DNA of 64,000 nucleotides from Promethearchaeota archaeon (GCA_048937405.1 JBHLNF010000001.1:256001-320000); one strand, 5' to 3'; shown: positions 8,287 through 25,907, counted from the stretch's first letter. The notes: generated by a model from the letters alone, not told the origin. Program-made: numbers and translations.

Positions 8287-8358
8287 GAAGGTATTAACCT
8301 AAAATTTCAATTAAAATTTTGTTTTATTTATTTTATATATGATATTATACATAGGAAT

Positions 8359-9528
8359 ATGAAGATTCTTAATATCGTGTTTAAAATTATATGGTATACT
8401 TCAATAATATTAATTTTTATTGAATTGATAATTGGGGCAATTTCAATAAGTTTTATAATATTTAAAATACAAACCACTTTAATTTTTAGGTTAAATCCTA
8501 TCATAATTCCAATAATCTGTATTTTATTTTTATTTCTTATTTTTTTCTATCCAACATTCTATAAAAATAAAAAAAATCCAAAATTTACATTTATCTCTAG
8601 ATATGAGATGATTAAAGGTACTAATTTTTACTCTCAAATTGGAATAGATTTACTTTTCGGAAGTCTCTTTGTTTTTTTGATATTATTCACCCTTTATTCT
8701 TTGATCTTTTATGGTATTTTAGATTTTGAATTAGGAATCGTAAGATTTGCTGGTTTTTGGTCATTTGTTATTTTTTTTGACATAACAATAATTAGTATAA
8801 AGTATTACAAATTATATTTGAAATTTTTTAGTTCCTTTGTGTTATTTAGTTCGATATTTGCTATTATAGTAGTTCCAATGTTGATCTTTATCGGGATTCC
8901 ATTTGTTATTTTCTATTTTTATGATGTGTCTTGGTATTTTGCTGACCCTACAATTTTAGTAAACGATCTCATATTTTCACGTGTTACAAATTTAAGAACG
9001 ATCTGGCTAAGTGCTTATTTAGAATGCTCGTTTATTTACTCTGAAGCATTTTTAATAATTAAAGCGATTATATTTCTTACCGGATTGACTTTATTTACAA
9101 TTTCAATAGTCCAATTAATCTATTGGCTTAAAAAGGAAAAAAATTTAGTACAACAGGGTATTTATAAATATATTCGGCATCCACAAAATTTTGCAATAAT
9201 AATTATGACTTTTCCGCTTTTTATTTTATATGATGTCAGAATAGGAAACATTGTAACTTGGATACAATTCGTCTTTCTTATGATTCTCTACTCTGATTTT
9301 GGGGATCTTAGATTAAACAAGAAATATCCTGATGAATTTCAAAATTATTATTCAAATACAGGATTTTTCCTTCCAAAAGTTATTTCAATAAAGGCTCTAA
9401 AGCCCCTCTCTATCTTTAAAAATAAAAAATTACGATATATTATTCTAGTTCTCATTTATGTTTTCACAATTATCATTTTGTATGTATTTTACTTAATTTT
9501 TCCATTTAATATTGCTATTAGTTATTAA
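8359..9528 (+). CDS. Polytopic membrane protein with C-terminal isoprenylcysteine carboxyl methyltransferase (ICMT/PEMT)-like domain
   Basis: Many TM helices and LVQQGIYKYIRHPQ motif. Start moved to ATG 8359 to avoid overlap with the methyltransferase gene. Confidence 0.75.
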   Translation: MKILNIVFKIIWYTSIILIFIELIIGAISISFIIFKIQTTLIFRLNPIIIPIICILFLFLIFFYPTFYKNKKNPKFTFISRYEMIKGTNFYSQIGIDLLFGSLFVFLILFTLYSLIFYGILDFELGIVRFAGFWSFVIFFDITIISIKYYKLYLKFFSSFVLFSSIFAIIVVPMLIFIGIPFVIFYFYDVSWYFADPTILVNDLIFSRVTNLRTIWLSAYLECSFIYSEAFLIIKAIIFLTGLTLFTISIVQLIYWLKKEKNLVQQGIYKYIRHPQNFAIIIMTFPLFILYDVRIGNIVTWIQFVFLMILYSDFGDLRLNKKYPDEFQNYYSNTGFFLPKVISIKALKPLSIFKNKKLRYIILVLIYVFTIIILYVFYLIFPFNIAISY

Positions 9529-9575
9529 GAATAAAACTAAAAAGATTAAAAAAAGGAGATTTGTTAGTTAATTAT

Positions 9576-10235
9576 ATGGTAGTCTATTTTGCGTTTTTAT
9601 TTCATATTTATCAACCCCCTGTGCAAATCCCAATAGTCATAAAACAAATCGTAAATGAATCATATAAACCGATAATGGAGGCGTTAAGAGATCATCCAGA
9701 AGCAAAAATCACACTCACCATTAATGCCACTTTAACTGAGCAATTGCATGATTTTGGGTATGTTGATTTAATTGGATTGATAACTACCCTTGCCTCAAGG
9801 GGGCAAATTGAATTCACAGGCTCAGGAAAGTTTCACCCTCTCCTTCCATTAATTCCTGAACCCGAAATTCTAAGACAAATACAACTCAATAATGAAACAA
9901 ATGAGCATTTTTTTGGGAAATTGTATAAACCTCGAGGCTTTTTTCCTCCCGAGATGGCAGTCTCAGACGAAGTGTTTAAAAGTGTTAAGAAGACAGGATT
10001 TGATTGGATGATCATGAGCGGTATCGCGAATACGTTGCCAGAATTTCCTATCAATCATATCTCGGTACATCCGAATAGGTTGAGAGTTCTTTTTAGGGAC
10101 GATTACACATCAATTGATTGTGCCTTTGACAAGATCAATAATATTGATGCGTTTACAGGCAGGTTAAAATATACGAATACTCCAGACGACACATATGTTT
10201 TTTTGGCAATGGCCGGTGAAATTTTGTCTATTTAA
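9576..10235 (+). pseudogene. Internally deleted copy of the GH57 glycoside hydrolase gene
   Basis: Closely matches 13636-14838, including ~40 nt of upstream sequence, up to ...GE. The catalytic DGET reads AGEI, then jumps to ILSI*, resembling the intact gene's terminal ILSL*. Confidence 0.8.
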
Positions 10236-10384
10236 CCTCACCAGTGTTTATATCCACCATTCTTAATATTCCTAAATAAATACTTTCAATTCAATAATAA
10301 ATACTTTTTATAAACCAATTAATCAATGGAATTTTCAGATTTCCTAAAAGTATAAATATTCAACAAATGAATAATTATCTGGAT

Positions 10385-10520
10385 AAAAAAATTTCCAATT
10401 TACCTAAAAAAAATGATTAGTTCATGACTAAAAATTTCCAATTTACCTAAAAAAATGATTAGTTCATGACTAAAAATTTCCAATTTACATAAAAAAAATG
10501 ATTAGATCATGATTAAAAAT
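10385..10520 (+). repeat. Three tandem 42-43 bp repeats, the last overlapping the start codon of the FG-GAP gene
   Basis: Unit AAAAATTTCCAATTTACCTAAAAAAA(A)TGATTAGTTCATGACT, with ATGs at 10424, 10466 and 10509. Confidence 0.92.
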
Positions 10521-13157
10521 AAACTTTTGATTATTGGATTGACATTTTTTTTAATAAGCAGTATTATTATCACAATTGTACCACTTCCAACAAATAATTA
10601 TATACAAACTAAGATTAAAGAGAAAGATGACATTCCGATAAACGAAATTGAGCCAATGGACCTTGGGATTATCCAACGAAATTATAAAGCTGATGGATCA
10701 ATAATTGAGGTAAAAAATAGTATTAATTTAGCAGATTCAACAACCCCCGGTGTTGAATCGGGAGATCATCCATTAGGGATAGATCAAATTCGATTTATTC
10801 CAAATAATGAATTAGCATTTGTTTGTCCAGGATTAAGTACAGATTTTGTTAATCTAAATGAAGTAGATATCAATCTAATTGAAAATGGAGTTGCCTCAAC
10901 CCCTTATCAGACTATGTTGGATGCAAGTTGTAGTTATGAATTCCAAGGAGGAGAACTAGGAGGACAAGCTGTTGATGCTACAAGTGGAGATGTTGATGGT
11001 GATATGAAAGATGAACTTGTAATAATTGATGAATCCGGAAAAGTCCGGATTTATAAATACAATACGACTTTAAGGCAGTTTAATAACATTACTCAATATG
11101 ATCTAGATATATCTGATGAACATTATTTTTATAGTCTTTCTCTGAATCAATTTAATGAAGATCTAGGTTTAGAAATAGTAATTGGATGTGGTTATGGAGA
11201 AAAAATCCAAATCTGGGATCCAGTTAATGCTGTAGGCAATTATTATAGTCCAGGTCTACGAAGTACTACAAGTGGAAGCCCAGGAGGAATTGCTGAATTC
11301 CATATTACTGAAAATACAAACCTTATGGATATAGAAACTGGAGATTTTAATGGAAATGGGTTCTGTGATATTGTTACTCTCGCACAAGATGGAGATTTAT
11401 TAGCATTTGAATTTGATTCAGTAGCTATAACCCAATTAGGGAGTGGAATCGAATTGAGTAATGGTGATTGGCAAGGATATCCCCATAATTTTCCAATGGG
11501 TCTAGCTACCGGAGATTTTAATGGAGATTCTCGATTAGATATAGCTGTGATGAAGTGTGATGTCAATCCAGGTAGTTATTATATTTATGCTGAAAACTAT
11601 TACGTTGAAACTGTTTATTGGAAAGGATTTTCAGCAGGAGGTACTGAATTTGTGAATTTAGGTGGGATAGATTTATCAGATTACGATATCTTTTTTCCTT
11701 CAATTGGAGCAGGTGATATTGATGGGGATGGATTATCTGAAACAGTAGTAGTGGGGAAACATGGACAAGGTATAGAAGTAGAGGCATGGTCTGTGTTAAT
11801 TTTTGATGATTGGGCTATTCCTCAAACAGCTCCAAAAGTTAACTTTCTTGGCGAATCACAATGTCCTTGGGCTGCAAAATCCTTCTCTTTTTCTGATGTA
11901 GATTTGGATGGGATTGATGAAATTTGTTTTTCAAGTGTCGAGAAATATGGAAATATTAGGGAAGAAAAATATTTAGCACAATTAGAAGACAGAAATACCT
12001 CTATTGTTAAAATTAATACCGAAACAAATCCATGGACAGCTACTACCTTAAAAGAATTTGACTCAACTTTGGGATATCCCGTTCCAGGAGATTATGATGG
12101 GGATGCGATTGTAATAGAATATTCTGGTCAACATTTCCCTCGGATAACTCCTCAAATCCCTATTTTTGTTTTGGCAGCGCCACCTATTTATTTTGATCTA
12201 AATGGTGAAGGCAGTGGTACTGCGGTATCAAAAGAAGAGTCTACTTCAATGGAAGTATCTGAGAGATTTAGTGTTATGGCGGGAATTAGAGTTTCTTTTG
12301 AAACCGGATTTGAATTATTTGGTACAGGGTTAAAATTTAAAACTAGCTTAGAAGCCAATTATCAATTTTCTCAAACAAAAACTACTACACAAACCGAAAC
12401 GATAGGTGTACGATATTCATCTGGTCATATGGAAAATCAGATTATTTGTGATGCGGTTGATTATGAATCTTATTTATACACGGTAACAAAGCATCCAAAA
12501 TCAGAAATGATAGGAAAAAATATATCAATAGATGTACCTATAAAAGTCTCTATCTATAGTATGACAGAGTCTTTATACAATAATGATAATTCTACAAATT
12601 ATATTGGGTCTGAAACGTATACTCATACACCAGGAAAACCTGGAACCTATCCAACTCGAGAAGAAGTAAATGCTCTAGAAGAGGTTGTGAAGATTATTGA
12701 CAAAATAGAAGTACCACAGGGGACTGGTATGGGCTGTGGAAGTACATTAAAATATACAAGGGAAAATGCGGAATCTGTTGAAAAGGAACATTCAATGGAA
12801 CTAATTTTCTCAGCGGGTATAGAAGCAGGAGGCTTTGGACTTGATATAAGTGTAGGGTTTGGTCTTGCGTGGGCCAATAAAGTCACTTATGGTCAAAGTA
12901 TGACATACGAGGGTACAGTTGCATGTATCTCCGATGTTAATGATTGGATGGCCCATAAATATTCATGGGGTCTCTTTATACAAAATATTGAACCAGATGA
13001 AGGGTTTTCATATCAATTAGTCCACTATTATACTGAAGGCGCTCCTAGTGATGATAAACCTTCCGAAGCAGTTCCAGGTTACAATACACTTTTAGTTATT
13101 GGAGTATTGATCATTTCACTTATTGTCCTAATATATTTTAAAAAACCGAAAAAGTAA
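10509..13157 (+). CDS. Cell-surface FG-GAP (integrin-alpha-like propeller) protein with C-terminal Loki-CTERM-like anchor
   Basis: N-terminal hydrophobic signal, repeats GDVDGD/GDFNGNG/GDFNGD/GDIDGDG/DVDLDG, and C-terminal VPGY + TM + KKPKK. Confidence 0.85.
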   Translation: MIKNKLLIIGLTFFLISSIIITIVPLPTNNYIQTKIKEKDDIPINEIEPMDLGIIQRNYKADGSIIEVKNSINLADSTTPGVESGDHPLGIDQIRFIPNNELAFVCPGLSTDFVNLNEVDINLIENGVASTPYQTMLDASCSYEFQGGELGGQAVDATSGDVDGDMKDELVIIDESGKVRIYKYNTTLRQFNNITQYDLDISDEHYFYSLSLNQFNEDLGLEIVIGCGYGEKIQIWDPVNAVGNYYSPGLRSTTSGSPGGIAEFHITENTNLMDIETGDFNGNGFCDIVTLAQDGDLLAFEFDSVAITQLGSGIELSNGDWQGYPHNFPMGLATGDFNGDSRLDIAVMKCDVNPGSYYIYAENYYVETVYWKGFSAGGTEFVNLGGIDLSDYDIFFPSIGAGDIDGDGLSETVVVGKHGQGIEVEAWSVLIFDDWAIPQTAPKVNFLGESQCPWAAKSFSFSDVDLDGIDEICFSSVEKYGNIREEKYLAQLEDRNTSIVKINTETNPWTATTLKEFDSTLGYPVPGDYDGDAIVIEYSGQHFPRITPQIPIFVLAAPPIYFDLNGEGSGTAVSKEESTSMEVSERFSVMAGIRVSFETGFELFGTGLKFKTSLEANYQFSQTKTTTQTETIGVRYSSGHMENQIICDAVDYESYLYTVTKHPKSEMIGKNISIDVPIKVSIYSMTESLYNNDNSTNYIGSETYTHTPGKPGTYPTREEVNALEEVVKIIDKIEVPQGTGMGCGSTLKYTRENAESVEKEHSMELIFSAGIEAGGFGLDISVGFGLAWANKVTYGQSMTYEGTVACISDVNDWMAHKYSWGLFIQNIEPDEGFSYQLVHYYTEGAPSDDKPSEAVPGYNTLLVIGVLIISLIVLIYFKKPKK

Positions 13158-13635
13158 GTTCTATTACCTTTTAAGTCGTAGCTTCTTTTTTTTTTTTATT
13201 TTGTTGGATGATTTTCATTTTCCCTTCATAAAGAAGAATATTAAAAATATCGTGAATCTCACTTGCCAATAATTTAATAAGGGTCAAAAGTATGATGCTA
13301 TAGAATGACTTAAAGAATCAAAGAAGAATTCCTTAAAACTTAAATAGTCTAAAGGTGTAGTCTATGCAGAACATATGATCCTAAAAACTAAAAAAAAATA
13401 TAAGAGAAAAAAGAGGAGAAGCGATTTAGGCGAAAATAATCAATTTATGATTATTAGGGATTAAGATAAGTTTTTTGCTTTAATTGCTTTCTTAGAAGAA
13501 AAGACCATACTTGAATAACGAATTAGTGAAGAAATGAGAGAAATTTACAAATTATTACCAAATGGTCGTTAAATTTTTCATATTGTTAAGAGTGAAACTG
13601 TAAAGATTAAAAAAGGAGTTTTTTTAGTTTATAAT

Positions 13636-14838
13636 ATGGTAGTCTATTTTGCGTTTTTATTTCATATCTATCAACCCCCAGTTCAGATACCCGCTGTTAT
13701 CAACCAAATCGTAAAAGAATCATATCGACCGATAATTGATGCATTGATGGAACACCCTGAAGCAAAAATAAGCTTAAATATTAATGGCACGTTAACGGAA
13801 CAATTACATGATTTTGGATATGATGATTTAATCGGGTTGATGACTACCCTTGCCTCAAGGGGGCAAATTGAGTTTACAGGGTCAGGAAAGTTTCACCCCT
13901 TACTTCCTCTCATTCCTGAGCCTGAAATTATGCGCCAAATCAAACTTAATAATGAAACGAATCGACATTTTTTTGGAGAATTGTATAAACCACGAGGCTT
14001 TTTTCCCCCAGAAATGGCAGTTTCCGAAGAGGTGTTTAAAACCGTTAGGAAAGCAGGGTTTGATTGGATGATCATGAGCGGAATTGCTAATACATTGCCA
14101 GAATTTCCTACAAATCATATATCTGTTCATCCAAATGGGTTAAAAGTGCTATTTAGGGATGATTATATTTCCATTGATTGCGCTTTTGATAAGATTAATA
14201 ATGTGGAAGCATTTGCCAATAGATTAAAATATATGAATAGCCCAAATGACGTATACGTAATTCTAAGTCTTGATGGAGAAACATTTGGACATCATGTAAA
14301 GCACGCGATAAAAGATTTCTTAATTCCATTGTTCGAGGCTCTCCCTCACAGAGACGATATAAAAATAGGTACGGTGTCGGAATTAATGGATAAATTCCCC
14401 AAGGGGTTCACTCAGGTTCCGCGGGATTCCAGTTGGTCCACCATGCCCTACGATATTGCCCATGATGTCCCCTTTCCCCTCTGGTTCGACCCAAACAATG
14501 AGATCCACAGAGAACAGCATAAGTTTTTCATGTATGCCCTCACTTTAATCCATCTCTCCAATAAATATCGGGAAAGCATGAATGACGAGAAAAAACGAAT
14601 TTTTGACAACGCTAGAAACTTGTTAGATCGCGGAATTCATTCATGTCAGCAATGGTGGGCTTCCAAACGCCCATGGTACAGCCCTGATATGATACTCCGC
14701 GGATTGAATGAAGTATTGATGGCAAGCGTCAATGCGAAACGTAGTATTCCAGATAATAATCCTGACATTAAAGATGCGATGGAGCTTATTATGGGAGATA
14801 TGCTAAAAGCTCAAAACAAAATAATACTGTCTCTTTAA
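13636..14838 (+). CDS. Glycoside hydrolase family 57 (alpha-amylase/amylopullulanase-like)
   Basis: HIYQP, HPLLPL, FPPEMA (nucleophile Glu), DGETFGHH (acid/base Asp) and SSWS motifs. Confidence 0.92.
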   Translation: MVVYFAFLFHIYQPPVQIPAVINQIVKESYRPIIDALMEHPEAKISLNINGTLTEQLHDFGYDDLIGLMTTLASRGQIEFTGSGKFHPLLPLIPEPEIMRQIKLNNETNRHFFGELYKPRGFFPPEMAVSEEVFKTVRKAGFDWMIMSGIANTLPEFPTNHISVHPNGLKVLFRDDYISIDCAFDKINNVEAFANRLKYMNSPNDVYVILSLDGETFGHHVKHAIKDFLIPLFEALPHRDDIKIGTVSELMDKFPKGFTQVPRDSSWSTMPYDIAHDVPFPLWFDPNNEIHREQHKFFMYALTLIHLSNKYRESMNDEKKRIFDNARNLLDRGIHSCQQWWASKRPWYSPDMILRGLNEVLMASVNAKRSIPDNNPDIKDAMELIMGDMLKAQNKIILSL

Positions 14839-14977
14839 TTCTTAATATTCTGAAATGAAAAGTTAAGTATAAATTTGGATAAAGCTTAAAATAAAATAAT
14901 CGTAACTTTGATGTGAAAACGAAAAAAAAGAAGAAAAAATGTAATAAGAACTTAATTAAGTCCTAGTACCGTTTAAT

Positions 14978-15343
14978 TTATACATTAGCTGTTTCTAAAG
15001 GTGATTTCTTGAGATTTCCCTCCAGTAAATCAAAAATACTATTCCAAAGGAGTTTTTTAGACTTCTTACCGCTCTTTTCAAACTCTACTTTCAAAATTTT
15101 ACCTTCGGATGGATCATCTATGATATGAAAGGTTCCAATAAAATCTTTCCCTGATTTTATTTCTATTATATTGGATGCAATATTATTGATTATAATTTCT
15201 TTTCCAAGAAACTTAAATAAGAATTGGCCTCGTAGATTTTCTAGAAATGCCTCAACTGCGCTGGTAATAACAGTATTAATTAAACTATCAGTCCAATCTG
15301 GATGACATTTTATAATTTTTGGCTTAGTATTATTTGTGTTATT
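14978..15343 (-). CDS. Stand-alone paralog of the C-terminal domain of the upstream SIR2-TPR protein (no ATG/GTG/TTG near the 5' end)
   Basis: 121 open codons, ...KIIKCHPDW...NIIEIKSGKDFIGTFHII...ILKVEFE...LW..., aligning with EIICHPKW...NLLEISSGDNFKATFHII...ILHIEWE...VW of 15385-17556. Confidence 0.65.
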   Translation of the reverse strand, partial: NNTNNTKPKIIKCHPDWTDSLINTVITSAVEAFLENLRGQFLFKFLGKEIIINNIASNIIEIKSGKDFIGTFHIIDDPSEGKILKVEFEKSGKKSKKLLWNSIFDLLEGNLKKSPLETANV

Positions 15344-15384
15344 TTATCTTTAATAAAGGTTTAGGTTAATAGAAAATTACGGTA

Positions 15385-17556
15385 TTATTTTATCAAGGAT
15401 TTTAAACCTGGTTTTTTGAACAAATCTGTCAATGAGGAGATAATTCCTTCCCATACTTGTCTTGTCACCGGACTCCTTTCTTCCCATTCAATATGAAGGA
15501 TCTGTTTCTTCTTATCTTTTTCAATAATATGAAAAGTGGCTTTAAAATTATCACCAGAGGAGATTTCTAAGAGGTTTGGTTCCAATTCATTACAATTTGT
15601 TATAACTCTTTGCCAATTAAGGGAATCTCTAAAATTGTCAAAAAAGGGTTTTATAAATCCTTTTAAAAAATTTTTAATGTCATTTGAATTCCATTTTGGA
15701 TGGCAAATGATCTCTTGTTTTATTTTTCTTATTCCTTGAGTATCTCCATCTTTGACGACCATACCTATAGTTTCCGCTGTTTTATCTTTAGCTGCTTTAA
15801 TCAATTCAAGGATGGAGTTTTTTGTTTCTTTTTCTCCAATTATTTCGGCAATATTACTTGCTTCTTCATATAATTCAACCGCTTCTTGAAACTTTCCTTG
15901 AGATTCATTTATCCTTGCCAAATTTGCTAAGCATACGATTTTTAAACTAGGAACCCCCAATTGTTCGGAGATTTTTAATGCTTCTTCCGTACTTTTCTTA
16001 GCTTCTTTATAATTTCTAGATGCTGCATAGATGTTTGCTATATTATTTAGAATAATACCTTTTGGTTTTAGGAGTCCTAATTTTTCTATGATTTCTAATC
16101 CTTCATTATAGTGTTTTAAAGCCTCAGAGTATTGCTGTTGCTTACTGTATAAATCACCAAGATTATTATGACAAGATGCTTGTTTCTTTAAATCTCCCAC
16201 CCTTTTATCGATATCTAGTGATTCTTTATACTTTATCATTGCTGCAGGATAATCTTTAATTTTTGTATAAGCTAATGCCATATTATTAAAAATACTAGAT
16301 TTTAGAGACAATTCACTGGAAATTGTAGGAATATCATAAGCCTCTTCTAAATTTTTTAAGGCCTCTGAATATTTTCCTTGATCTATTAAAACTTCTGCAA
16401 TATCATTGAGAGCAATTGCTATCCAAATATTATATCCTCCTTCATTAGCAATTTGAAGAATTTCTTTACTGCTCTTTATAGCATTTGGATACATATCCAA
16501 AGCACGGTAGATTCTATTAGGAATATAATGTTGAGTAACTTCAAGGACATTTTGATAAATTTTATTGAGATATTCTTTGAGATCCAGAGAAAAATTTTCA
16601 TTACTTATATTAGGTTTAATATCTAATAATTCTTCTACCATTTTATCCGTGTTCACATTTACCAAGTATATTTGGTTTATATTTTTCCCCTGCCAGATTT
16701 CATAAAGAATCTGAGCAACTTTCCTTAAATTCATTTCCAATTTGTCTAATGATTGAGATGTATTATCACTAATCTCGTATATCTGTTCTTTTCCCATTTC
16801 TATGTTATGTGTAAAATTTATCCATATAATATTCTGAACATAGTTTAATATTTTTAAGGTGGGTACAATATCAAAATCATCGCTGCCAGAATAACCCATT
16901 ACTACTAAGGAACGATCTTTTGTGACATTTTCAAATAAAGGGCGTTTAAAAGATTCTAATTGAAATACATTTTCTCCCTGTTTGTTTGATCCAAATGCTT
17001 GAATTGTGGCAACTAGAGAATCTCTGGTGTTTTCTTTGGTTGAAAAATTTTTTGTTGAACCATGTATTTTATATACTGATTTTTTTCCTTGATTTAACTG
17101 TTCATAAGGATCTGCAAATTTTTCAAAATCCTCTTTTGTTATTACTGGAACAATCTCCTCAAGAGCTACCCCTGATTGGTTTAAGGCATATTCAATTAAA
17201 TAATCGAAATTAGTAGTCATAACAAAATTTCCACGTTTTATCATCTCTGCTAAGAAAAAATGTTGGATATTTGGTTTATCACATTGACCATAGTAATCGA
17301 TAAGACTGAGATTTTTATCTATTTGATTTCGAATAACCTCAACTAAAGCTTCAAATCGTAATTTTCCTGATTTCATTAACTCTAATATGGTATTAATCTC
17401 AGATTGAGCACATGTATGATTAATTAATGCGTTCATCATTGCATACCCTGCGGGAAGACATGAAGGAGCACTAACGGAACAACCTGCTCCCACTAAAAAA
17501 GTCCATTTTTGATCCAAATTTAGCAAATCATTTATCTTAAGGTTAGTAAGTCTCAT
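15385..17556 (-). CDS. SIR2-like (SIR2_2) domain + TPR repeats + unknown C-terminal domain
   Basis: FLVGAGCS, TTNFD, KIHGS and VMGYSGSDD motifs, followed by TPR-type repeats (NNMA/NNLG/NNIA). Confidence 0.88.
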   Translation of the reverse strand: MRLTNLKINDLLNLDQKWTFLVGAGCSVSAPSCLPAGYAMMNALINHTCAQSEINTILELMKSGKLRFEALVEVIRNQIDKNLSLIDYYGQCDKPNIQHFFLAEMIKRGNFVMTTNFDYLIEYALNQSGVALEEIVPVITKEDFEKFADPYEQLNQGKKSVYKIHGSTKNFSTKENTRDSLVATIQAFGSNKQGENVFQLESFKRPLFENVTKDRSLVVMGYSGSDDFDIVPTLKILNYVQNIIWINFTHNIEMGKEQIYEISDNTSQSLDKLEMNLRKVAQILYEIWQGKNINQIYLVNVNTDKMVEELLDIKPNISNENFSLDLKEYLNKIYQNVLEVTQHYIPNRIYRALDMYPNAIKSSKEILQIANEGGYNIWIAIALNDIAEVLIDQGKYSEALKNLEEAYDIPTISSELSLKSSIFNNMALAYTKIKDYPAAMIKYKESLDIDKRVGDLKKQASCHNNLGDLYSKQQQYSEALKHYNEGLEIIEKLGLLKPKGIILNNIANIYAASRNYKEAKKSTEEALKISEQLGVPSLKIVCLANLARINESQGKFQEAVELYEEASNIAEIIGEKETKNSILELIKAAKDKTAETIGMVVKDGDTQGIRKIKQEIICHPKWNSNDIKNFLKGFIKPFFDNFRDSLNWQRVITNCNELEPNLLEISSGDNFKATFHIIEKDKKKQILHIEWEERSPVTRQVWEGIISSLTDLFKKPGLKSLIK

Positions 17557-17656
17557 AAGATTTCACCATTAAAATATAAAATTTAGGAATAATAAGGAAG
17601 AGCATTATTTATTTATTATGTTTCTACTTAAATGTAAAAAAGACAAAATTAATATA

Positions 17657-17714
17657 ATGGAGCTTATTATGGAAGATACACTAAATACACAAGATAAGAT
17701 AGTTTTGTCCTTAA
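17657..17714 (+). pseudogene. Remnant of the GH57 gene 3' end
   Basis: Reads MELIMEDTLNTQDKIVLSL versus GH57 MELIMGDMLKAQNKIILSL, with an identical 16-mer ATGGAGCTTATTATGG. Confidence 0.75.
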
Positions 17715-17864
17715 TGTGAATATTGGTTTCAAATAGAGAAATCATTAAATTAACTCATCTTGATAATGTAATTTTATTAGAAAAATCTTTCAATTTCTTC
17801 AATAATCTCTTCTGAATAATGAGTTTTTCAATATGCACAATTGCTTCTGTTACTAATTTAGTTT

Positions 17865-19568
17865 TTAAATACTAATTTCATCTTCTTCTACTTTTAAAAC
17901 TAATTTAAAAGTACTTCCTTTTCCATATTTGCTTTTTACTGTTATATCTCCTCCGAGTAAATTCGCTAACTTCTTAGAAAGATGAAGTCCTAGACCACTT
18001 CCCTCTTTATACTTTCCAGGTTCAGGAATTCGACTAAATGGTTTGAATAATTTATTTAAATCCTCTTTTTGTATTCCTGAACCAGTATCTTTAACAGAAA
18101 TTACAACGCTTTCTTTTTTTCTTTTAATTTTTATAGATATTCTTCCGCTATCAGTGAATTTTATTGCATTTCCGATCAGATTTATTAAAATTTGATTTAC
18201 CCGTTTTTTATCGTTGCTAATTATAAGGTTTTCGGGAGCATCAATAAATAGGTCGAGACCTTTTTTCTTAGCAGCAACACTGAAAGTTTCTTTCAAATTT
18301 ATTAACTCTTCTACGAGATTAAAGTTATCTTTTACTATGGGTAATTTACTTATTTCTATTTTAGTCATATCAATTGTATCAGTTATTAAATCATCTAAAT
18401 AAGTTGCACTGTTGAGAATAATATTAAGTTGGTTTTCTTGTTCTTCATTTATCTCTCCGGCTCTTCCCTTCAATATTGTTCTTGTAAAACCTATTATAGA
18501 GGTTAATGGAGTTTTTAACTCATGAGTTATACTTGCTAAAAAGCTAACTTGTTGCGGTCTTGTGAACATTGCTAAGAAATCAGCTTTATAGGCTTCATCC
18601 TTTTTTAATTTTTCTTCACTTACTGAGAGTATTTCAGAATGCATGTTTTTTATTATGTGAATCAACAATATAGAAAAATATATAATTGCGAATAATAATT
18701 CACTGATTAATAAATTCCATTCAAAAGACCAATTTTTTTGTTTAGTTACTACACCAATATCAATAATTGTAATTCCAATGAGTATAGGAATAGTAAAAAT
18801 TGCAAAAAATACCCAATAAGTTAGGGGTTTAGAAACTACATTAGGATCAAAAATTATTGGAATAATAATAATACAACAACCTGTAATTAAAAAAAGAGGA
18901 CCTAAAAATAATGGAAATAAATTGAGCTCTTTATGAGTACTTTTTGCAAAGTTTAATGAAATCATGAATAATATAAATCCAGAGAAAAAGAACGAAGACA
19001 CAGCTTTAAACTCAAGACGGGACCATTTAGTATAAAGAAATAATATTAATGGAATAAAAACTATTAATTCAATTACTAAAAAGACATTAAAAACAAATTT
19101 CGCTATTCTAATTTTATTGATGATTGAAAAAAAAATTTCTATCCCTATCGTAACTGTACAAATAATTGTCAGAAGAAATCTTGTTCGTTTTGCGATTATA
19201 TCAAATGCTAATACAAAGAACATACCTCCTAATCCAAAAGAGATATAACTTAATACACCAAAAAGTGTGTATGGGTCAGAGATTCGTTCAGAAGATGGAT
19301 AATCTCCGCAAAATGTTAATGAGTCGTTAACAAAATTTACTGGAGATAGAGGGATTTGAAGAACTTGAAAATAAGTAAATAACAGACTAAATGCAAAACC
19401 AAGGGGCAAACTTGCTAGTCCTAGCATACTAATTCTTTCCCTAAAGACTTCTCTTTTTCCTGCTATATGTATAAAATAAATTCCACATATTAAGGCAATT
19501 GTAATTGCACATCCCCAAAGAAATCTTTCAAGGGGATCCCAAACCATTACTCCATTAATACATCCCAT
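17865..19568 (-). CDS. Polytopic membrane sensor histidine kinase
   Basis: Multi-TM N-terminal half, then ITHELKTPL, NLIGNAIKF, DTGSGI and GSGLGL. Confidence 0.93.
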   Translation of the reverse strand: MGCINGVMVWDPLERFLWGCAITIALICGIYFIHIAGKREVFRERISMLGLASLPLGFAFSLLFTYFQVLQIPLSPVNFVNDSLTFCGDYPSSERISDPYTLFGVLSYISFGLGGMFFVLAFDIIAKRTRFLLTIICTVTIGIEIFFSIINKIRIAKFVFNVFLVIELIVFIPLILFLYTKWSRLEFKAVSSFFFSGFILFMISLNFAKSTHKELNLFPLFLGPLFLITGCCIIIIPIIFDPNVVSKPLTYWVFFAIFTIPILIGITIIDIGVVTKQKNWSFEWNLLISELLFAIIYFSILLIHIIKNMHSEILSVSEEKLKKDEAYKADFLAMFTRPQQVSFLASITHELKTPLTSIIGFTRTILKGRAGEINEEQENQLNIILNSATYLDDLITDTIDMTKIEISKLPIVKDNFNLVEELINLKETFSVAAKKKGLDLFIDAPENLIISNDKKRVNQILINLIGNAIKFTDSGRISIKIKRKKESVVISVKDTGSGIQKEDLNKLFKPFSRIPEPGKYKEGSGLGLHLSKKLANLLGGDITVKSKYGKGSTFKLVLKVEEDEISI

Positions 19569-19660
19569 ATTTTCATCTTCTCGTTGAATATTAATGTTTT
19601 AATTCAATATTTTCAATTTTTCAAATTAATATTACACTTAAATTTAAGAAAATATAAATA

Positions 19661-19689
19661 TTAATTACTTTATTGTCAAATATTTAAAT
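19661..19689 (+). promoter_or_regulatory. 29-bp upstream motif, copy 1 (before the response regulator)
   Basis: TTAATTACTTTATTGTCAAATATTTAAAT, 27/29 identical to 20609-20637; contains TATA-like TATTTAAA. Confidence 0.65.
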
Positions 19690-19718
19690 CTTTTTTATTC
19701 ATTTATTGGAGAATTAAA

Positions 19719-20612
19719 ATGAAACCCTTAATACTTGTAGTTGAGGATGATCCCAATATATTAAAATATCTGAAAATGACTTTAGAATTTAATGAATGCA
19801 AAGTAATTACAGCAGAAAACGGAAAAATGGGTTTAAAAGTTCTTTCAGAGCTAAAAGAACCTCTTGATCTTATTATTAGTGATATTATGATGCCCGAGAT
19901 GAATGGATACGACTTTTTTGATGCTGTTTCTAATAATTCAGCCTATTATCAGGTTCCATTCATCTTCCTTTCCGCTCTTGATTCTCCGGAAGATATTCGA
20001 TTTGGAAAGATGCTTGGAGTAGATGATTATATCACTAAACCTATTAATGAAGAAGACTTTCTGGCAATTGTTTTTGGCAAAATTAAACGCGGTAAAAAAA
20101 TTAGCGTGATTAATGAAAAAATAAATGAAATTTATTCTACCCCTGGGATCTCAGAATTACTAGTTCCTAAGGAAAATGAGGAAATAATTTTATTAATTGA
20201 AGTAAACTGGGATGATGTAGTAGGTCCAAAATTAATAAACTATTATCCCAAAGATATTGAATTAGATGTATCGCTTAGTAATATTAGTGATCAGCTTTAT
20301 GATGGTGTTAAAGCAATGTATGGTCAAGATGCTATTTTAACTGGAGAAGGACTCTTAATTAATTTAAAAAATCTAAATGTTAGTGCATATGTCTTTTTTG
20401 ATTCATATCTTGATAAATCTTATAGAGGAGGAAGAAAAGATTATATGTTTTCGCTAATTGCATCCACTATAACATATTTCCAGTCTCTAAAAATTAAACA
20501 AGTTTTTATAGAACTATCATCTTTATATAAAAAACAGGAAAAATGGGATATAGAAAAGTTTTGGAACGAATTTTATGAGATCCTTTCAAAACCATCACTA
20601 ATATCTAGTTAA
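19719..20612 (+). CDS. Response regulator receiver fused to a longin/uDENN-like domain
   Basis: Receiver motifs VVEDD, ISDIMMP and KP. The C-terminal LIEVNWDDVVGPKLINYYP resembles the FDxxxGP..YP start of longin/uDENN domains (inference). Confidence 0.8.
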   Translation: MKPLILVVEDDPNILKYLKMTLEFNECKVITAENGKMGLKVLSELKEPLDLIISDIMMPEMNGYDFFDAVSNNSAYYQVPFIFLSALDSPEDIRFGKMLGVDDYITKPINEEDFLAIVFGKIKRGKKISVINEKINEIYSTPGISELLVPKENEEIILLIEVNWDDVVGPKLINYYPKDIELDVSLSNISDQLYDGVKAMYGQDAILTGEGLLINLKNLNVSAYVFFDSYLDKSYRGGRKDYMFSLIASTITYFQSLKIKQVFIELSSLYKKQEKWDIEKFWNEFYEILSKPSLISS

Positions 20613-20637
20613 TTACTTTTCTGTCAAATATTTAAAT
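20609..20637 (+). promoter_or_regulatory. 29-bp upstream motif, copy 2 (before the small GTPase)
   Basis: TTAATTACTTTTCTGTCAAATATTTAAAT. Confidence 0.65.
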
Positions 20638-20707
20638 AACTTCAAAAATTCTTTCATTTCAAAGTTTTGATATTAATTATAATAATAAACAAAGAGATGA
20701 ATTATTA

Positions 20708-21259
20708 ATGAATAATAAAGAAAATGAAGAACAACCAATAAAACTTGTAATCATTGGAATGGAAAATGCTGGAAAAACCACGATTTTAGACGTACTCACG
20801 GGAAAAATTAATCAAGAACCTAATAAACCACCCAGTATGAATCCTACCAAAGGTGTTGATAGAAGTGTTGTGTTATTTTTTGAAAAGGAGACTAAAGTCT
20901 GGGATTTTGGTGGTCAAGAATCTTTTCGCAATGAATATATATCAAATCCAAAGAAATATTTTTACTCAATCTCGTTTTTTTATTATGTTGTAGATATTCA
21001 GGATTATTACCGACTTATACAATCTGTAATGTATTTTAAAGGAATTTTTAATTTAATTAGAAAATATAGCCCAGAAGCAAAAATCATTTTCCTTTTTCAT
21101 AAGATGGACCCTGATTATGATCCAAATGAGAGAAATCTAAAAGAAAAGTTCTTGGAAAAGGTTGAATCAGATTTAAAGTTAGAAAATATACCTTATACAA
21201 TGTATGACACTACGATTTTTGATATTAAAACTATTAAAACTGCTTTTGGTCAAGAATAG
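20708..21259 (+). CDS. Small GTPase, Rag/Arf-like
   Basis: G1 GMENAGKTT, G2 PTKG, G3 WDFGGQ and G4 HKMD (Rag-type). Confidence 0.92.
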   Translation: MNNKENEEQPIKLVIIGMENAGKTTILDVLTGKINQEPNKPPSMNPTKGVDRSVVLFFEKETKVWDFGGQESFRNEYISNPKKYFYSISFFYYVVDIQDYYRLIQSVMYFKGIFNLIRKYSPEAKIIFLFHKMDPDYDPNERNLKEKFLEKVESDLKLENIPYTMYDTTIFDIKTIKTAFGQE

Positions 21260-21401
21260 TAAAACAGATTTTAAAATTTTATATTTTTTATTATGAATTT
21301 TTCCTGCATTTGAATTTAAAAAAGGGTTTAAATCGCGTTTTTTTTTGCTTTATCCAATTCCACAGATCGAGTGAAACAAAATTTAAAAAGGAATCTAAAT
21401 C

Positions 21402-21532
21402 GATGAATTGTTAATCAAAAGTATGATTGCAAAATGTAGCATTCCTGAAAATAACCCTGATATTAAGGATGCAATGGAGCTTATTATGGAGATATGCTAA
21501 AAGCTCAAAATAAAATCATTTTATCTCTTTAA
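21402..21532 (+). pseudogene. Remnant of the GH57 gene 3' end with a 1-nt deletion
   Basis: DELLIKSMIAKCSIPENNPDIKDAMELIM-/-DMLKAQNKIILSL* versus GH57 NEVLMASVNAKRSIPDNNPDIKDAMELIMGDMLKAQNKIILSL*. Confidence 0.88.
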
Positions 21533-21615
21533 TGTGAAAATAAAAAAAAATAAATTAATTATACTTTTTTGAAAAGATAATTAATTGACTAAAAAATTCA
21601 CCAAATTTTTACTTG

Positions 21616-23499
21616 TTAAGATATTATTCCTAATTCTTTCAATGTTTCTTCAGTTGGTCTTCCTGTATCCCAATCCCATCCTCGAGCGCTATAATATTTT
21701 TTCAAATTCTCTTCTAAATCGAGTTTTACGTTTCTTGTTCTTCCTGATGTTAATACTTTCATATTATGATTGGTTAATCTATCATCTTTTCTTGTAATTC
21801 CTAAATTACAACTGATTAAACGTTTCGCATTGTTTATTCGCGCCCCAACTTTCATCAGAGATTTTCTATCATAATTAAAACCAGTAGCAGCATTGATATA
21901 ACCGATAATATGCTCAAGTTTGGGGGTTGCAAAATTACAATTCACTGCAGAATCGTCAATAGCCCTAAGGTCTTGAAGTTTAGCAACTCCTCTTTCTCCT
22001 TTTGTTATATCATATCTATTTTTACTCCTTTTAATATGAAGAATTGGAATATTTATAGTTCCCGATTCTGCAGCATACCAATCAGCTTTATTATGATTTG
22101 CTCCAACACATCCCGTCATATAGCTTAATGCCTGTCCGGCGAATGCTCGTGGTTCATGCATCGGTATTTCTAATCCTTTTACATGTGCGGCTAATTCAGG
22201 ATCTACTTCCAATTTCTCTGCCATTATTCTTGTACCTTCAGCAAGGATATCCCCAATACCTTCCCTTTTTACTATTTTTTCAACAAGTTTGCATACAACC
22301 TCTCCATTTCCCCATTTAATATCTTCTATTGGAATATCACTTAAAAATTGCTTAATTTTCTCAATCCCTATATTATTTTCGACTAAATAGATAAGAAAAG
22401 CAATGGAGACTCCACAAGAAATGGTGTCAATACCATATTTATTACATAAGTGATTGGCAATAAGTACTGGTTTTGAATCAAAAACACCACATAAAGTACC
22501 TAACGCAGCTACAGATTCATATTCTGGTCCATCACTCTCAATTTCTTTCCCATCAATTTCAATAACCGTTGATTTACCGCACCTTAGTGTACAACCTGAG
22601 CACCCATAACTGAACACAGGATATTGTTCCGTTAGAGTTTTCCCTGTTAAATTCTCGGCAAAAAATTCTGTTTCTGTAAAGTAATATGCTGGCGTATCAC
22701 CATTAACCATTCCTAAATCGAGATACATGTTAGTACCATATAATGTAAAAAGTAGAGTTCCTAATTCTCCCATTGGATTTGCTTCCCTTGCAGCTTGAGC
22801 CTCTTTTCTTAGCTTTTTCCCTAATTCATTATCTGCTAGTTTAACTCTTTCTTTTCCATCTACTACTAATGCCTTCAAATTTTTTGATCCCATAAGAGCT
22901 CCCATCCCGCATCTCCCTACGATTCTCCCCTCATCATTCATTATAGCACCATATTTAACAAGATTTTCGCCGCCTTGACCAATACAAGCCATCCGAGCTT
23001 TTGGGTCATTCAATTCATCTCTAATTAATTTTTGAGTTTCATAACAATCTTTACTATGGAATTTTGAAGCATCTTTAAATTCTACATTTCCATCATGAAT
23101 ATACACGTAAGTTGGTTTATTTGCTTTTCCCAAGAAAACTACAGCATCAAATCCACTATTTCTTAGAGAAATACAGAAATACCCTCCTGAAGTTCCTTCA
23201 CCCCAAATCCCGGTTAAGGGGGATATACCACTCACAGTATAGCGTCCTGAATTTGGCCTAATAGTTCCTGTTATAGGACCAGTAGCAAAAATTAAAGGAT
23301 TAACTTCTGAGTAAGGGTCTTCTTTCAATCTCTTGTAATCATCCTCAGAAAGCAGATCATACGTTATTTTAGCGCTTAATCCAGTTCCTCCTAAATAGTC
23401 TTGTGCAATTTTAGGGTCTAAATCCTTTATTTCAAAACTTTCTTTGCTTAAATCCACAAAAAGGATTTTTCCATTATAACCATTTAATTTATCATTCAT
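21616..23499 (-). CDS. aor: Aldehyde:ferredoxin oxidoreductase (W-dependent AOR family)
   Basis: GGTGL, SPLTG, GRCGMGALMGSKNLKA, GPEYES, CSGCTLRC and GIDTISCG motifs. Confidence 0.93.
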   Translation of the reverse strand: MNDKLNGYNGKILFVDLSKESFEIKDLDPKIAQDYLGGTGLSAKITYDLLSEDDYKRLKEDPYSEVNPLIFATGPITGTIRPNSGRYTVSGISPLTGIWGEGTSGGYFCISLRNSGFDAVVFLGKANKPTYVYIHDGNVEFKDASKFHSKDCYETQKLIRDELNDPKARMACIGQGGENLVKYGAIMNDEGRIVGRCGMGALMGSKNLKALVVDGKERVKLADNELGKKLRKEAQAAREANPMGELGTLLFTLYGTNMYLDLGMVNGDTPAYYFTETEFFAENLTGKTLTEQYPVFSYGCSGCTLRCGKSTVIEIDGKEIESDGPEYESVAALGTLCGVFDSKPVLIANHLCNKYGIDTISCGVSIAFLIYLVENNIGIEKIKQFLSDIPIEDIKWGNGEVVCKLVEKIVKREGIGDILAEGTRIMAEKLEVDPELAAHVKGLEIPMHEPRAFAGQALSYMTGCVGANHNKADWYAAESGTINIPILHIKRSKNRYDITKGERGVAKLQDLRAIDDSAVNCNFATPKLEHIIGYINAATGFNYDRKSLMKVGARINNAKRLISCNLGITRKDDRLTNHNMKVLTSGRTRNVKLDLEENLKKYYSARGWDWDTGRPTEETLKELGIIS

Positions 23500-23522
23500 T
23501 TTTTTAAATCACTCCAAATAAT

Positions 23523-24830: not shown

Positions 24831-25117
24831 AAAACCACCTATTTATTTTTTAATTTAATTTTTGATAAAATATTATAAATAAATTGTTATTTCTTAATAA
24901 ATCTTAATTCTCTTGAGATTGATTATTTGGCTTATTATGAATCTGGAGATTAAATTTAGTTTTCTTAAGAACGATTAAGATGAAAGTAATTCTGAAATAC
25001 TTAGTTCTTTCATATTAAATTGAATAGAACTCATAAAGAAATGTAATTCATAAGTTCAAAAAAAAATAAATATATGTCAATATAAAATTAAAAAAAAAAG
25101 AAAAAGATAGTTTTTAA

Positions 25118-25317
25118 TTACTCCTTTTTAAAAAGATTTCCACATCCCCCACACTTAATAGTTTTAGCATAAACCGGAGTACCCTGCTTCAGCAGTATGC
25201 TTAATTAGCATTACTTATACTGTAGTAAAGCACATTACTCTTATCTGGTTCTTCATGAAGCATTCGTGGATTCTCATTTCCACATTGGGGGCATTTAACT
25301 CTTTTAAAATCACTCAT
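25118..25317 (-). CDS. 56-aa zinc-ribbon protein encoded by two exons (25317-25217 and 25187-25118)
   Basis: Removing 25188-25216 gives MSDFKRVKCPQCGNENPRMLHEEPDKSNVLYYSMQGTPVYAKTIKCGGCGNLFKKE*. The two CxxC knuckles lie in different frames until spliced. Not in the ORF track. Confidence 0.8.
25188..25216 (-). other. Putative 29-nt mRNA intron, relaxed BHB (HBh'/BHL-like)
   Basis: Minus strand CAGT-ATA-[AGTAATGCT AATTA AGCATACT]-GCTG-AAG gives a 4-bp central helix, a 3-nt bulge and an intron stem-loop. Cuts at AT|A and AA|G restore the frame. Confidence 0.75.
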
Positions 25318-25376: not shown

Positions 25377-25907
25377 TTAGGTATTTAGATTGGTATTTAT
25401 TACAATCTCGTGAACAATTTCTTTAATAGTTTTATTTGTGGTATCAATCATAAATTCAGCTGATTTTTCATATAAAGGTTTTCGAAAATTTAAGATTTTT
25501 AAAATTTCTTTCTTAGGGTCTTTTTTATCAATGAGAGGTCTTGTTTCTTTGCCATCCTTTAAGGCTCTCCTGAATATTTCATCTGGAGTGGCCTTTAATA
25601 AGACAATATGACAATTTTTACTTAAATGCAGAATATTTATAGGATTTAAGACTACTCCACCCCCACATGAGATCACAACTTTGTTAAGTTTAGAAACTTC
25701 TTTACACACTAAAATTTCATATTCTCTAAATTTATCTTCTCCTTCTTCTGCAAAAATTCTGGGTATTGACTTACCGGCTTGTTGAATAATAAGTTGATCT
25801 GTTTCGATAAATCTATAATCGTTCCCTAGATAATCAACTAATGCTTTTCCTATTGTGGTTTTTCCAGTAGCCATAAAGCCAATGAGTGCTATTGAATCTT
25901 TTCCCAT
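25377..25907 (-). CDS. aroK: Shikimate kinase (AroK type)
   Basis: GFMATGKTT, FREYE, SCGGG and RPL motifs. Confidence 0.93.
   Translation of the reverse strand: MGKDSIALIGFMATGKTTIGKALVDYLGNDYRFIETDQLIIQQAGKSIPRIFAEEGEDKFREYEILVCKEVSKLNKVVISCGGGVVLNPINILHLSKNCHIVLLKATPDEIFRRALKDGKETRPLIDKKDPKKEILKILNFRKPLYEKSAEFMIDTTNKTIKEIVHEIVINTNLNT

Follow-up and report, generated by a model that had tools for sequence, protein, structure and literature searches.

The closest described counterparts of the array reported here are the T6SS effector-immunity clusters of Vibrio cholerae, for which a sequential displacement model has been published (Kirchberger et al. 2017, PMC5361080); that paper also refers to C-terminal displacement at Rhs/CDI loci (Jackson et al. 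2009, cited in PMC5361080). In such loci, orphan 3' ends stand in a row behind an intact gene, all in its orientation and each still attached to the genes that once lay downstream of it. No integrase is involved, a homologous anchor and an illegitimate join have been proposed, and finished arrays are exchanged between relatives. Because the displaced ends encode polymorphic toxin domains and immunity genes are what is kept, selection accounts for the retention. The core-gene-flanked hotspots or 'minimal mobile elements' of bacteria, reportedly the subject of work by Saunders and Snyder in 2002 and by Oliveira et al. in 2017, combine conserved flanks with alternative content that includes empty sites, lack mobility genes and exchange by flank recombination. 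Their descriptions do not stress layered stubs of the flanking gene that record the order of arrival. Integrative elements such as e14 and phage 21 in icd of Escherichia coli occupy the 3' end of a protein gene: the incoming 3' end restores the gene, the old end is left as a displaced direct repeat, empty sites occur, and tandem accretion can build arrays at such sites. A site-specific recombinase and a fixed att core are required. The integrated elements described from Asgard archaea are aloposons, proviruses, ICEs and IS elements (PMC8813620; PMC11529989). They carry integrases or transposases and supply Asgard chromosomes with accessory and defence genes, and many of them, namely the aloposons and HeimV1, have tRNA genes as integration sites (PMC8813620).

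The window, a stretch of 64,000 nucleotides on contig C7 of a Promethearchaeota genome (G000), contains an array whose pattern is that of a recombination scar of a type already described. In this Loki genus, the aroD-GH57-aroK locus is probably a recombination hotspot for accessory blocks from congeners. As at T6SS and Rhs loci, the intact gene has orphan 3' ends behind it that share its orientation and keep their former downstream genes. The locus works like a displacement array but is not a member of that class, because its ends are conserved and its cargo consists of kinases, an aldehyde:ferredoxin oxidoreductase and an iron alcohol dehydrogenase (AOR-ADH), a SIR2-TPR protein and an FG-GAP protein. 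The anchor is a conserved GH57-family gene without a variable domain, the stubs are dead, the cargo is arbitrary (defence, signalling, metabolism, surface), displacement has occurred on the 5' side too, and the host is an Asgard archaeon. Conserved flanks, alternative content with empty sites, laterally exchanged cargo and the lack of mobility genes are shared with the bacterial hotspots. The restored gene, displaced direct repeat and empty sites of the icd type are also found, but a recombinase and a fixed att core were both sought and neither was detected; in contrast to many of the Asgard integrated elements, the locus has no tRNA gene. An integron, with IntI, attI and attC, was rejected: there is no tyrosine recombinase on contig C7, and no recurrent inverted repeat marks the cassette ends among the repeats listed. 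Gene-end-swapping cassettes of the mORF/WHO-like homing-endonuclease type were rejected as well, none of the six islands having a LAGLIDADG match.

The core flanks are the shikimate-pathway genes aroD and aroK. The 3' end of aroD (type I 3-dehydroquinase) occupies positions 1-71 (+ strand); a tblastn search with the proteins of the canonical locus places aroD at C7:255331-256065, and its orthologue in G009 matches DHquinase_I (Pfam, E 5.6e-49). The aroK gene (shikimate kinase; Pfam SKI, E 3e-42) lies at 25377-25907 (- strand), where canonical synteny picks up again. In 7 congeners the canonical locus is aroD-GH57-aroK only, an empty site. Because this interval spans 25.3 kb in G000 (72-25376) and includes AOR and ADH, these two genes are cargo as well. 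The preliminary description had proposed looking in relatives for variable cargo and empty sites, both of which were found; the empty site is, however, GH57-aroK and not GH57 followed by aor.

GH57B (13636-14838, +; Pfam Glyco_hydro_57, E 5e-42) is the intact gene that anchors the locus. By its PF03065 score of 144.5 bits (104.8 for GH57A; curated cut-off 21.2) it is a predicted, glycosidase-like member of glycoside hydrolase family 57, and of 53 other genomes of the genus that were searched, 32 carry a full-length orthologue (80-91% identity). Upstream of it stands GH57A (9522-10224, +; gene nt -52 to ~650; nhmmer E 3e-201), which shares 83% amino-acid identity with residues 1-215 of GH57B and abuts the FGGAP cassette. 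It had been taken for an internally deleted copy. Instead it is a truncated 5' copy, a 5' stub that at its 5' end shares 91% identity with the 5' stub found in the sister species G044. The stop-like tail belongs to the left end of the FGGAP cassette (10221-10290, +), which combines ~15 nt similar to the GH57 stop region with sequence like that downstream of GH57B; the FGGAP tract of G008 opens with this same sequence, straight after aroD. GH57A was under strong purifying selection for most of its history (dN 0.07-0.13, dS above 1.6). The GH57 copies of the array are 77-86% identical, a divergence about equal to that of orthologues between species.

Stubs were searched with nhmmer, using a DNA profile built from 23 GH57 orthologues. 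Both remnants in the preliminary description are real GH57 ends. Remnant 1 (17657-17736, +) runs from gene nt ~1145 through the stop into downstream sequence (E 4e-9; 77% identity to GH57B over 53 nt, blastn) and has an orthologue in G008. Together with the next 120 nt it aligns collinearly with the end of GH57 in G054 and the sequence beyond it (78% over 179 nt), and it appears to be the end of a GH57 that formerly preceded the kinase module. Remnant 2 (21403-21540, +; gene nt ~1074 to the stop and beyond; E 1e-26; 86% over 107 nt) is frameshifted, with a 1-nt deletion directly 3' of the 16-mer discussed below. Flank included, it is 90% identical to the stub behind the GTPase gene of G044, and from 21403 onward it is collinear with the stub-AOR-ADH-aroK arrangement of G018 and G044; this collinearity points to the end of a GH57 that formerly preceded AOR-ADH, itself a captured block followed by a stub of its own. 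That stub, at 24948-25139 (+), is heavily decayed and continues into the canonical GH57 downstream spacer (alignment score 45; highest shuffle score, 31). Clear stubs in G018 (nhmmer E 2e-18) and on metagenome contig L138 align collinearly with it and match canonical GH57-aroK, and it is probably the original gene end beside aroK. A mini-stub at 14879-14950 (+) begins 41 nt past the GH57B stop and comprises the last ~35 nt of the canonical GH57 end and an A-rich downstream spacer (local alignment score 32; best of 500 shuffles, 30). To GH57A, GH57B and the two remnants described originally, these last two stubs must be added.

Every stub runs into DNA that lies downstream of an intact GH57 elsewhere, namely the histidine kinase module in G054 and AOR-ADH in G018 and G044. 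At the locus, 5' stubs lie upstream of intact GH57 (G000, G005, G044, G046, G018) and 3' stubs downstream, always in direct orientation. The same outward bias marks the non-coding gene-end stubs of the whole G000 genome (3' stubs, 23 downstream vs 8 upstream; 5' stubs, 11 upstream vs 1 downstream; Fisher p 1e-4).

The intervals between the GH57 ends hold distinct blocks. A PEMT/ICMT-like membrane protein gene (8359-9528, +; weak Pfam PEMT/ICMT matches; conserved start Met at ~8359) forms one unit with GH57A, collinear with PEMT-GH57 of G047 in a single blastn alignment (8309-10225). The FG-GAP repeat surface protein (10509-13157, +; Pfam FG-GAP_3) lies in a tract, 10221-13215, that is 86% identical to G008. 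Beyond the mini-stub follow the c31 frame (14978-15340, -; identified by aligning its translation with c31 of G008) and a SIR2-TPR defence-like protein (15385-17556, -; Pfam SIR2_2 and TPR). The 115-aa c31 gene always accompanies the SIR2-TPR gene (G008, G005, G042, G046); in G000 its frame is open but has no ATG, GTG or TTG start. The shared SIR2-TPR tract extends from 14974/14975 to 17647 in G005 (85%) or 17709 in G008 (89.5%). Between the remnants lie a histidine kinase (-), a receiver-domain protein (+) and a Rag/Arf-like GTPase (+; together 17865-21259, Pfam), and the AOR and ADH genes occupy 21616-24830 (-; Pfam). GH57 is thus a site of serial accumulation of surface, defence and signalling blocks, as had been proposed, and of metabolic ones, each bracketed by a displaced GH57 end.

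Cargo varies among relatives: that of other congeners is c26, MFS, PEMT, the histidine kinase module alone or SIR2-TPR alone. The kinase/receiver/GTPase module has GH57 and aroK as its immediate neighbours in G041 and G054 and lies at unrelated loci in G002 and G052; AOR-ADH is absent from canonical loci and present at other loci in G014 and others. All close orthologues of PEMT in the genus (5/5) are at the GH57 locus, and all those of SIR2-TPR (5/5) adjoin GH57. Between G000 and G008, dS is 0.96-2.3 for flank genes and 0.19 for FGGAP, 0.31 for PEMT and 0.28 for SIR2-TPR; between G000 and G018 it is 1.0-1.8 for flanks, 0.25 for PEMT and ~0.47 for AOR/ADH (NG86 estimates, rough in a 30% G+C genome). 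The full range for PEMT is 0.22-0.31, against flanks of about 1 or more. On a tree of seven linked flank genes the island-bearing species are scattered, each next to an empty or nearly empty sister. Because cargo dS is far below flank dS and distribution on this tree is patchy, the cargo has moved laterally.

The best reading of the locus, to which we give a probability of about 0.6, is that GH57 copies were displaced one after another by homology-anchored recombination, in the manner of Rhs and T6SS loci (sequential displacement). The mechanism and order of events, as we infer them, would be as follows. Congener DNA with a GH57 copy and neighbouring accessory genes would recombine into the locus, one join being made through GH57 or flank homology and the other, illegitimate or of short homology, falling inside the resident GH57. 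The incoming GH57 would take over as the working copy, and the resident, reduced to a stub, would be pushed outward with everything beyond it. Repeats on the 3' side would yield the layers GH57B, mini-stub, c31/SIR2-TPR, remnant 1, kinase/receiver/GTPase, remnant 2, AOR/ADH, decayed stub and aroK, and a mirror process on the 5' side would have left PEMT-GH57A upstream. Candidate mechanisms are homology-facilitated illegitimate recombination and Campbell-type single crossover of circularised fragments. Several observations count against capture. GH57 copies differ by ~20% at the DNA level and are poor substrates for classical homologous recombination. High-identity cargo tracts end just outside GH57 and do not reach into the gene, so GH57 and cargo have not been caught moving as one piece. 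The same modules occur without a 3' stub in G041, G054, G042 and G046, where they must have come in or been tidied differently, e.g. by double crossover. G018 and G053 have intact GH57 copies in inverted orientation, which call for extra inversions, and no donor, circle or polymorphic population for cassette capture was observed.

Local tandem duplication of GH57, with decay of all copies but one and independent insertion of unrelated genes between them, is unlikely, although it accords with the presence of both GH57A and GH57B, the purifying selection on GH57A and an inter-copy divergence about equal to that between species. Decay predicts 5' and 3' pieces on both sides, whereas the stubs point outward at the locus and genome-wide; every stub lines up collinearly with a different GH57-X adjacency, found intact in another species, and the lateral dS signal of the cargo also argues against it. 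The preliminary description had left integration and homologous capture side by side. Capture fits; serial site-specific integration, by elements carrying a GH57 3' end (attP) and acting, via a recombinase, at a fixed 16-mer core, with the integrase genes since lost, is rather improbable. Such elements do leave an intact gene, cargo and a displaced 3' end in direct orientation, empty sites are known in congeners, and remnant 1 and its G008 orthologue start at the 16-mer or within 5 nt of it. However, 3' stubs have nine different left ends (gene nt ~656, 664, 807, 841, 1054, 1074, 1093, 1108 and 1145), and 5' stubs occur too. The reported absence of an integrase from the window extends to tyrosine recombinases on the entire contig C7, and PF00589 had no match on the island contigs of G008, G018, G044, G005 and G053 either. 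Pfam scans of cargo ORFs, through which serine recombinases and transposases were sought at the ORF level, revealed no recombinase domain among those scanned, which are ordinary cellular genes. Neither GH57 nor the 22-mer was found on viral contigs.

The 16-mer itself is, as stated earlier, exact at 14779, 17657 and 21474, all on the + strand, with no further exact copy in the 4.47-Mb genome (0.08 matches expected; at least three in 0/100 shuffles). It codes for MELIM(G/E), 13 of its 16 positions are invariant among the orthologue 3' ends listed, and in G000, G044 and G053 most copies and stubs of GH57 share it together with the following bases. The 16-mer is a conserved coding allele (MELIM) of the clade rather than an att core. 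The TGTGAA behind both remnants is present as described but is merely the ancestral gene end (Met codon, TGA stop and downstream A's), seen in most orthologues. That homing-endonuclease cassettes made the stubs by swapping gene ends is very doubtful: LAGLIDADG_3 matches exist elsewhere in G000, one of them weak and beside another stub locus at C7:930625, but none was found in the six islands (LAGLIDADG_1, _2 and _3 in G000; LAGLIDADG_3 on the other five island contigs), and the cassette genes encode kinases, oxidoreductases, a SIR2-TPR protein and a surface protein. Least credible is a chimeric assembly of strain variants with false partial duplicates. The compared genomes are metagenome-assembled and G000 has an estimated contamination of 5.7%, but the copies, at 77-86% identity, are too diverged for collapse or mis-join. 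Misassembly is also unlikely because G008, G044, G053, G018 and two metagenome contigs, all assembled independently, carry orthologous stubs whose junctions are the same.

A more speculative reading, to which we attach little weight, is that a chromosomally encoded, trans-acting recombination system uses the ends of GH57 and some thirty other G000 genes. If true, it would stack cassettes integron-like without a cassette-linked integrase, and Asgard archaea would possess a platform dedicated to gene capture rather than a set of passive recombination scars.

Three further cargo genes lie between aroD and PEMT. A PAS-rich histidine kinase (85-3120, -; Pfam PAS_9, HisKA, HATPase_c) is missing from canonical loci. 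A 579-aa ORF (6547-8286, -; family unassigned) has no Pfam match and no counterpart in the loci compared. A 191-aa protein (4894-5469, +), likewise of unassigned family and without a match in a Pfam search, is shared with G044 and G053, where proteins with 83-86% amino-acid identity are encoded beside aroD.

The GH57 locus is a hotspot anchored in core genes, with displaced gene ends, and represents no new kind of system. The genome that holds the window (G000) comprises 4.47 Mb in 29 contigs, the window being contig C7:256001-320000. The genomes nearest to it were assembled from metagenomes and belong to one genus of Promethearchaeota (Loki-type Asgard); the same order includes, in other families, Promethearchaeum syntrophicum and Harpocratesius repetitus. 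Gene order in 8-25 kb was determined from ORF calls and Pfam. It runs from a PEMT/ICMT-like membrane protein (PEMT, + strand) through GH57A, a 224-aa GH57 fragment (+), an FG-GAP protein (+) and the intact GH57B of 400 aa (13636-14838, +) to a SIR2-TPR protein (-), a histidine kinase (-), a receiver protein (+), a Rag/Arf-like GTPase (+), an aldehyde:ferredoxin oxidoreductase (AOR, -) and an iron alcohol dehydrogenase (ADH, -). The core gene aroD ends at position 71 and aroK occupies 25377-25907, so the variable interval of 25.3 kb between them (72-25376) takes in aor and adh. The G+C profile has no sharp edge to the island, and tRNA and Rfam scans of positions 1-30000 gave no match.

The longest ORF of PEMT starts at 8254; conservation in five species begins at a Met near 8359, and the relatives have a stop upstream of this Met. 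In-frame TAG codons within PEMT orthologues were considered and rejected, their positions lying upstream of the true start codon. Directly upstream of the FG-GAP start (10387-10520), a 42-43-nt unit is present in three tandem copies, perhaps with a promoter or regulatory function. The frame of c31, a 115-aa gene always found with SIR2-TPR (14978-15340, -), is open in G000 with AAG in place of the ATG start of its relatives; the gene is either just inactivated or using an unusual start.

In seven congeners (G006, G009, G010, G014, G015, G016 and G020) the order is aroD-GH57-aroK without anything between; the empty site is thus GH57 followed by aroK, not by aor as had been supposed. GH57 is followed by a single small gene in G003, G007 and G017, by an MFS transporter in G011, by the kinase/receiver/GTPase module in G041 and G054, and by c31 plus SIR2-TPR in G042. 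PEMT precedes GH57 in G047, and SIR2-TPR with c31 precedes it in G005 and G046, behind a 5' stub (dead piece) of GH57. G008 has an array like that of G000 without aor/adh. In the sister species G044, the kinase module and AOR-ADH each have a 3' stub before them, and a 5' stub lies upstream. Three metagenome contigs contain a 22-mer; two of them contribute further stubs, one preceding the kinase gene and one in the ADH-aroK interval. G018 and G053 carry an inverted intact GH57 and truncated resident pieces, so that inversions also belong to the dynamics of the locus. At L032 (G018:C35) and L050 (G053:C2), a truncated 3' fragment of the resident gene lies downstream of the inverted copy, and G018 also has a 5' fragment. 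A short inverted piece of the GH57 5' end in the SIR2-TPR promoter region, which would have linked the G005/G046 arrangement by inversion to that of G000/G008, was considered and discarded for want of sufficient similarity. A 774-aa protein with a weak PD-(D/E)XK nuclease match is encoded beside large GH57 3' fragments in G018 (L032:9479-11803) and G051 (L051), the fragments having a near-identical breakpoint (profile positions 756 and 764). Metagenome contig L137 also has sequence from the neighbourhood of this gene, there adjoining another GH57 3' fragment.

The two remnants and GH57A were scored with a DNA profile built from 23 full-length GH57 orthologues with flanks. Remnant 1 (17657-17736, profile E 4e-9) and remnant 2 (21403-21540, E 1e-26) are significant 3' stubs, and the 16-mer of the preliminary description is found at 14779, 17657 and 21474 (three matches in 0/100 shuffles), with a 1-nt deletion after it in remnant 2 and no further exact copy in the G000 genome. 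The array of GH57 ends is real, with corrections. GH57A (9522-10224, E 3e-201), whose protein is 83% identical to residues 1-215 of GH57B, had been described as internally deleted; its homology simply ends at about 10224. The tail beyond, together with a GH57B-like downstream motif, recurs as the same sequence in G008, there directly after aroD, and is for that reason assigned to the left end of the FG-GAP cassette. A mini-stub just past the GH57B stop (14879-14950) scored 32 against a shuffle maximum of 30. A decayed stub between adh and aroK (about 24948-25139) scored 45 against a maximum of 31, and its collinear counterparts in G018 (E 2e-18) and on one metagenome contig are clear stubs.

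The stubs read as displaced resident GH57 ends, each leading into DNA that in a different species lies behind an intact GH57. In G054, where GH57 stands directly before the kinase module, the end of that gene and the DNA beyond it align with remnant 1 and its next 120 nt (78% over 179 nt). From remnant 2 onward there is a continuous alignment with GH57 fragment-AOR-ADH-aroK of G018 and G044, and the stub behind the GTPase of G044 matches remnant 2 and its left flank at 90% identity. The ADH-aroK stub of G018 runs into the canonical GH57-aroK spacer. PEMT-GH57A and the PEMT-GH57 pair of G047 align collinearly in one piece (8309-10225), and GH57A is cut at the start of the FG-GAP cassette. Given the collinearity of each stub, the array reads as layers: a GH57-AOR-ADH unit would be the lowest, stacked on the original gene end, followed by a GH57-kinase-module unit and finally by a unit with c31/SIR2-TPR at the top.

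Synonymous divergence (dS) was calculated by NG86. Between G000 and G008, flanking core genes have a dS of 0.96-2.3, versus 0.19 for the FG-GAP gene, 0.31 for PEMT and 0.28 for SIR2-TPR. The corresponding values are 1.0-1.8 versus 0.25 (PEMT), 0.48 (AOR) and 0.47 (ADH) for G018, about 0.9-2.0 versus 0.22 (PEMT) for G047, and 0.43-1.0 versus 0.22 (receiver), 0.17 (GTPase), 0.27 (AOR) and 0.31 (ADH) for the sister species G044. High-identity tracts end sharply (8309/8315 to 9508/9560, 10221-13215, 14974/14975 to 17647/17709 and 17885-21560), and a tree of seven flanking proteins groups G008 with the empty G010, G018 with the empty G014 and G016, and G005 with G047. Judged from these sequence comparisons, the cargo has passed between species. 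GH57B itself has a dS of 1.28 to G044, above the flanks (0.43-1.0); in a sliding-window comparison with its orthologues it resembles a mosaic along its length and has no recent donor, as if GH57 alleles had been swapped between lineages. All of the close SIR2-TPR orthologues (5/5) and PEMT orthologues (5/5) lie at the GH57 locus. The kinase module and AOR-ADH are also found at unrelated loci in other congeners, and were thus recruited to the GH57 locus. The kinase/receiver/Rag-like GTPase trio stands at an unrelated locus, which may be its native position, in L132 (G002:C4) and L133 (G052:C3), both from congeners without this GH57.

The preliminary description proposed GH57 as a site of repeated integration or homologous capture. 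Left ends of 3' stubs lie at about gene nt 656, 664, 807, 841, 1054, 1074, 1093, 1108 and 1145, and right ends of 5' stubs at about +9, +24, +59, +202 and +650. Six-frame searches of the island contigs of G000, G008, G018, G044, G005 and G053 yielded no tyrosine recombinase and no LAGLIDADG_3; LAGLIDADG_1 and LAGLIDADG_2 were not found in G000, the only genome searched for these two. LAGLIDADG gene-end-swapping cassettes were likewise sought at the GH57 locus as a source and not found. A Pfam scan of about 60 cargo ORFs from six genomes matched, among others, kinases, regulators, oxidoreductases, transporters, CAAX proteases and an AbiJ-like protein; the remaining ORFs have no match. The GH57 protein and the 22-mer are absent from the viral contigs searched. 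The 16-mer codes MELIM(G/E), with 13/16 positions invariant among the orthologue 3' ends compared, and 24 nt are common to GH57B and several GH57 copies and stubs of G044 and G053, so its identity reflects conservation plus shared ancestry rather than a crossover core. TGTGAA after the remnants is the ancestral gene end (Met codon, TGA stop, A-rich spacer) present in most orthologues, from which the GH57B 3' end has diverged. With varied stub ends and no tyrosine recombinase on the contigs of the six islands, integration elements are unsupported at GH57, as is an att core; a displaced gene end need not be an att site. The role of GH57 as a capture and stacking site for cassettes is supported, and the earlier interpretation thus holds in part.

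The array fits the sequential-displacement model of T6SS effector-immunity arrays and Rhs loci, in which a homologous anchor plus an illegitimate join insert a unit and the old 3' end is pushed back (PMC5361080). At GH57 an incoming unit would be inserted in this way, moving the older 3' end back. By an alternative route, a Campbell-type single crossover with a circularised fragment carrying part of GH57, the same structure would be expected. We infer the recombination step itself, and assign a probability of about 60% to this family of mechanisms, displacement or Campbell-type. Counting against this family, the GH57 copies differ by ~20% at the DNA level, the cargo tracts stop short of GH57, several relatives carry the same modules without stubs, and the inverted GH57 copies require extra steps.

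Interspecies gene flow is little documented in Asgard archaea, and the literature examined covers only integrase- or transposase-borne elements. Here such flow and its scars are documented in an Asgard genus. On the displacement or Campbell-type reading, the stubs are a legible record of how genes for defence, signalling and metabolism reached a Lokiarchaeal chromosome from sister species with no mobile-element machinery involved, its layers marked by stubs and roughly dated by synonymous divergence.

The 150 nt at each end of every ORF of at least 750 nt in G000 served as queries in a census of copies within 15 kb that fall outside any comparable ORF. Of the 46 stubs recorded, 43 are in direct orientation; the census is crude, bare ORFs serving as gene calls and some matches coming from paralogue families. 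The 3' stubs lie mostly downstream (23, with 8 upstream) and the 5' stubs upstream (11, with 1 downstream), an outward bias with a Fisher p of 1e-4 (3e-4 without the two GH57 stubs). The bias points to a genome-wide displacement process in G000, with the GH57 array as its richest case. If the outward pattern, seen at about thirty further places, holds, homology-anchored displacement may be a routine growth route for these large archaeal genomes. The ~40 further stubs are non-coding, nearly all direct and biased outward; examples are C7:483683-487970, C13:236195-238853, C19:36408-38467, C25:178797-183532, C27:82983-86049 and C28:480461-492364. Outside the window, at C7:919174-932828, one gene is flanked by a 5' stub 2.8 kb upstream and, 4.2 kb downstream, by a 3' stub of 95% identity; the following gene has its own 5' stub 5.8 kb upstream. 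Between them (C7:930625-930729) is a weak LAGLIDADG_3 match (E 0.011), possibly making this, unlike the GH57 locus, a homing-endonuclease case.
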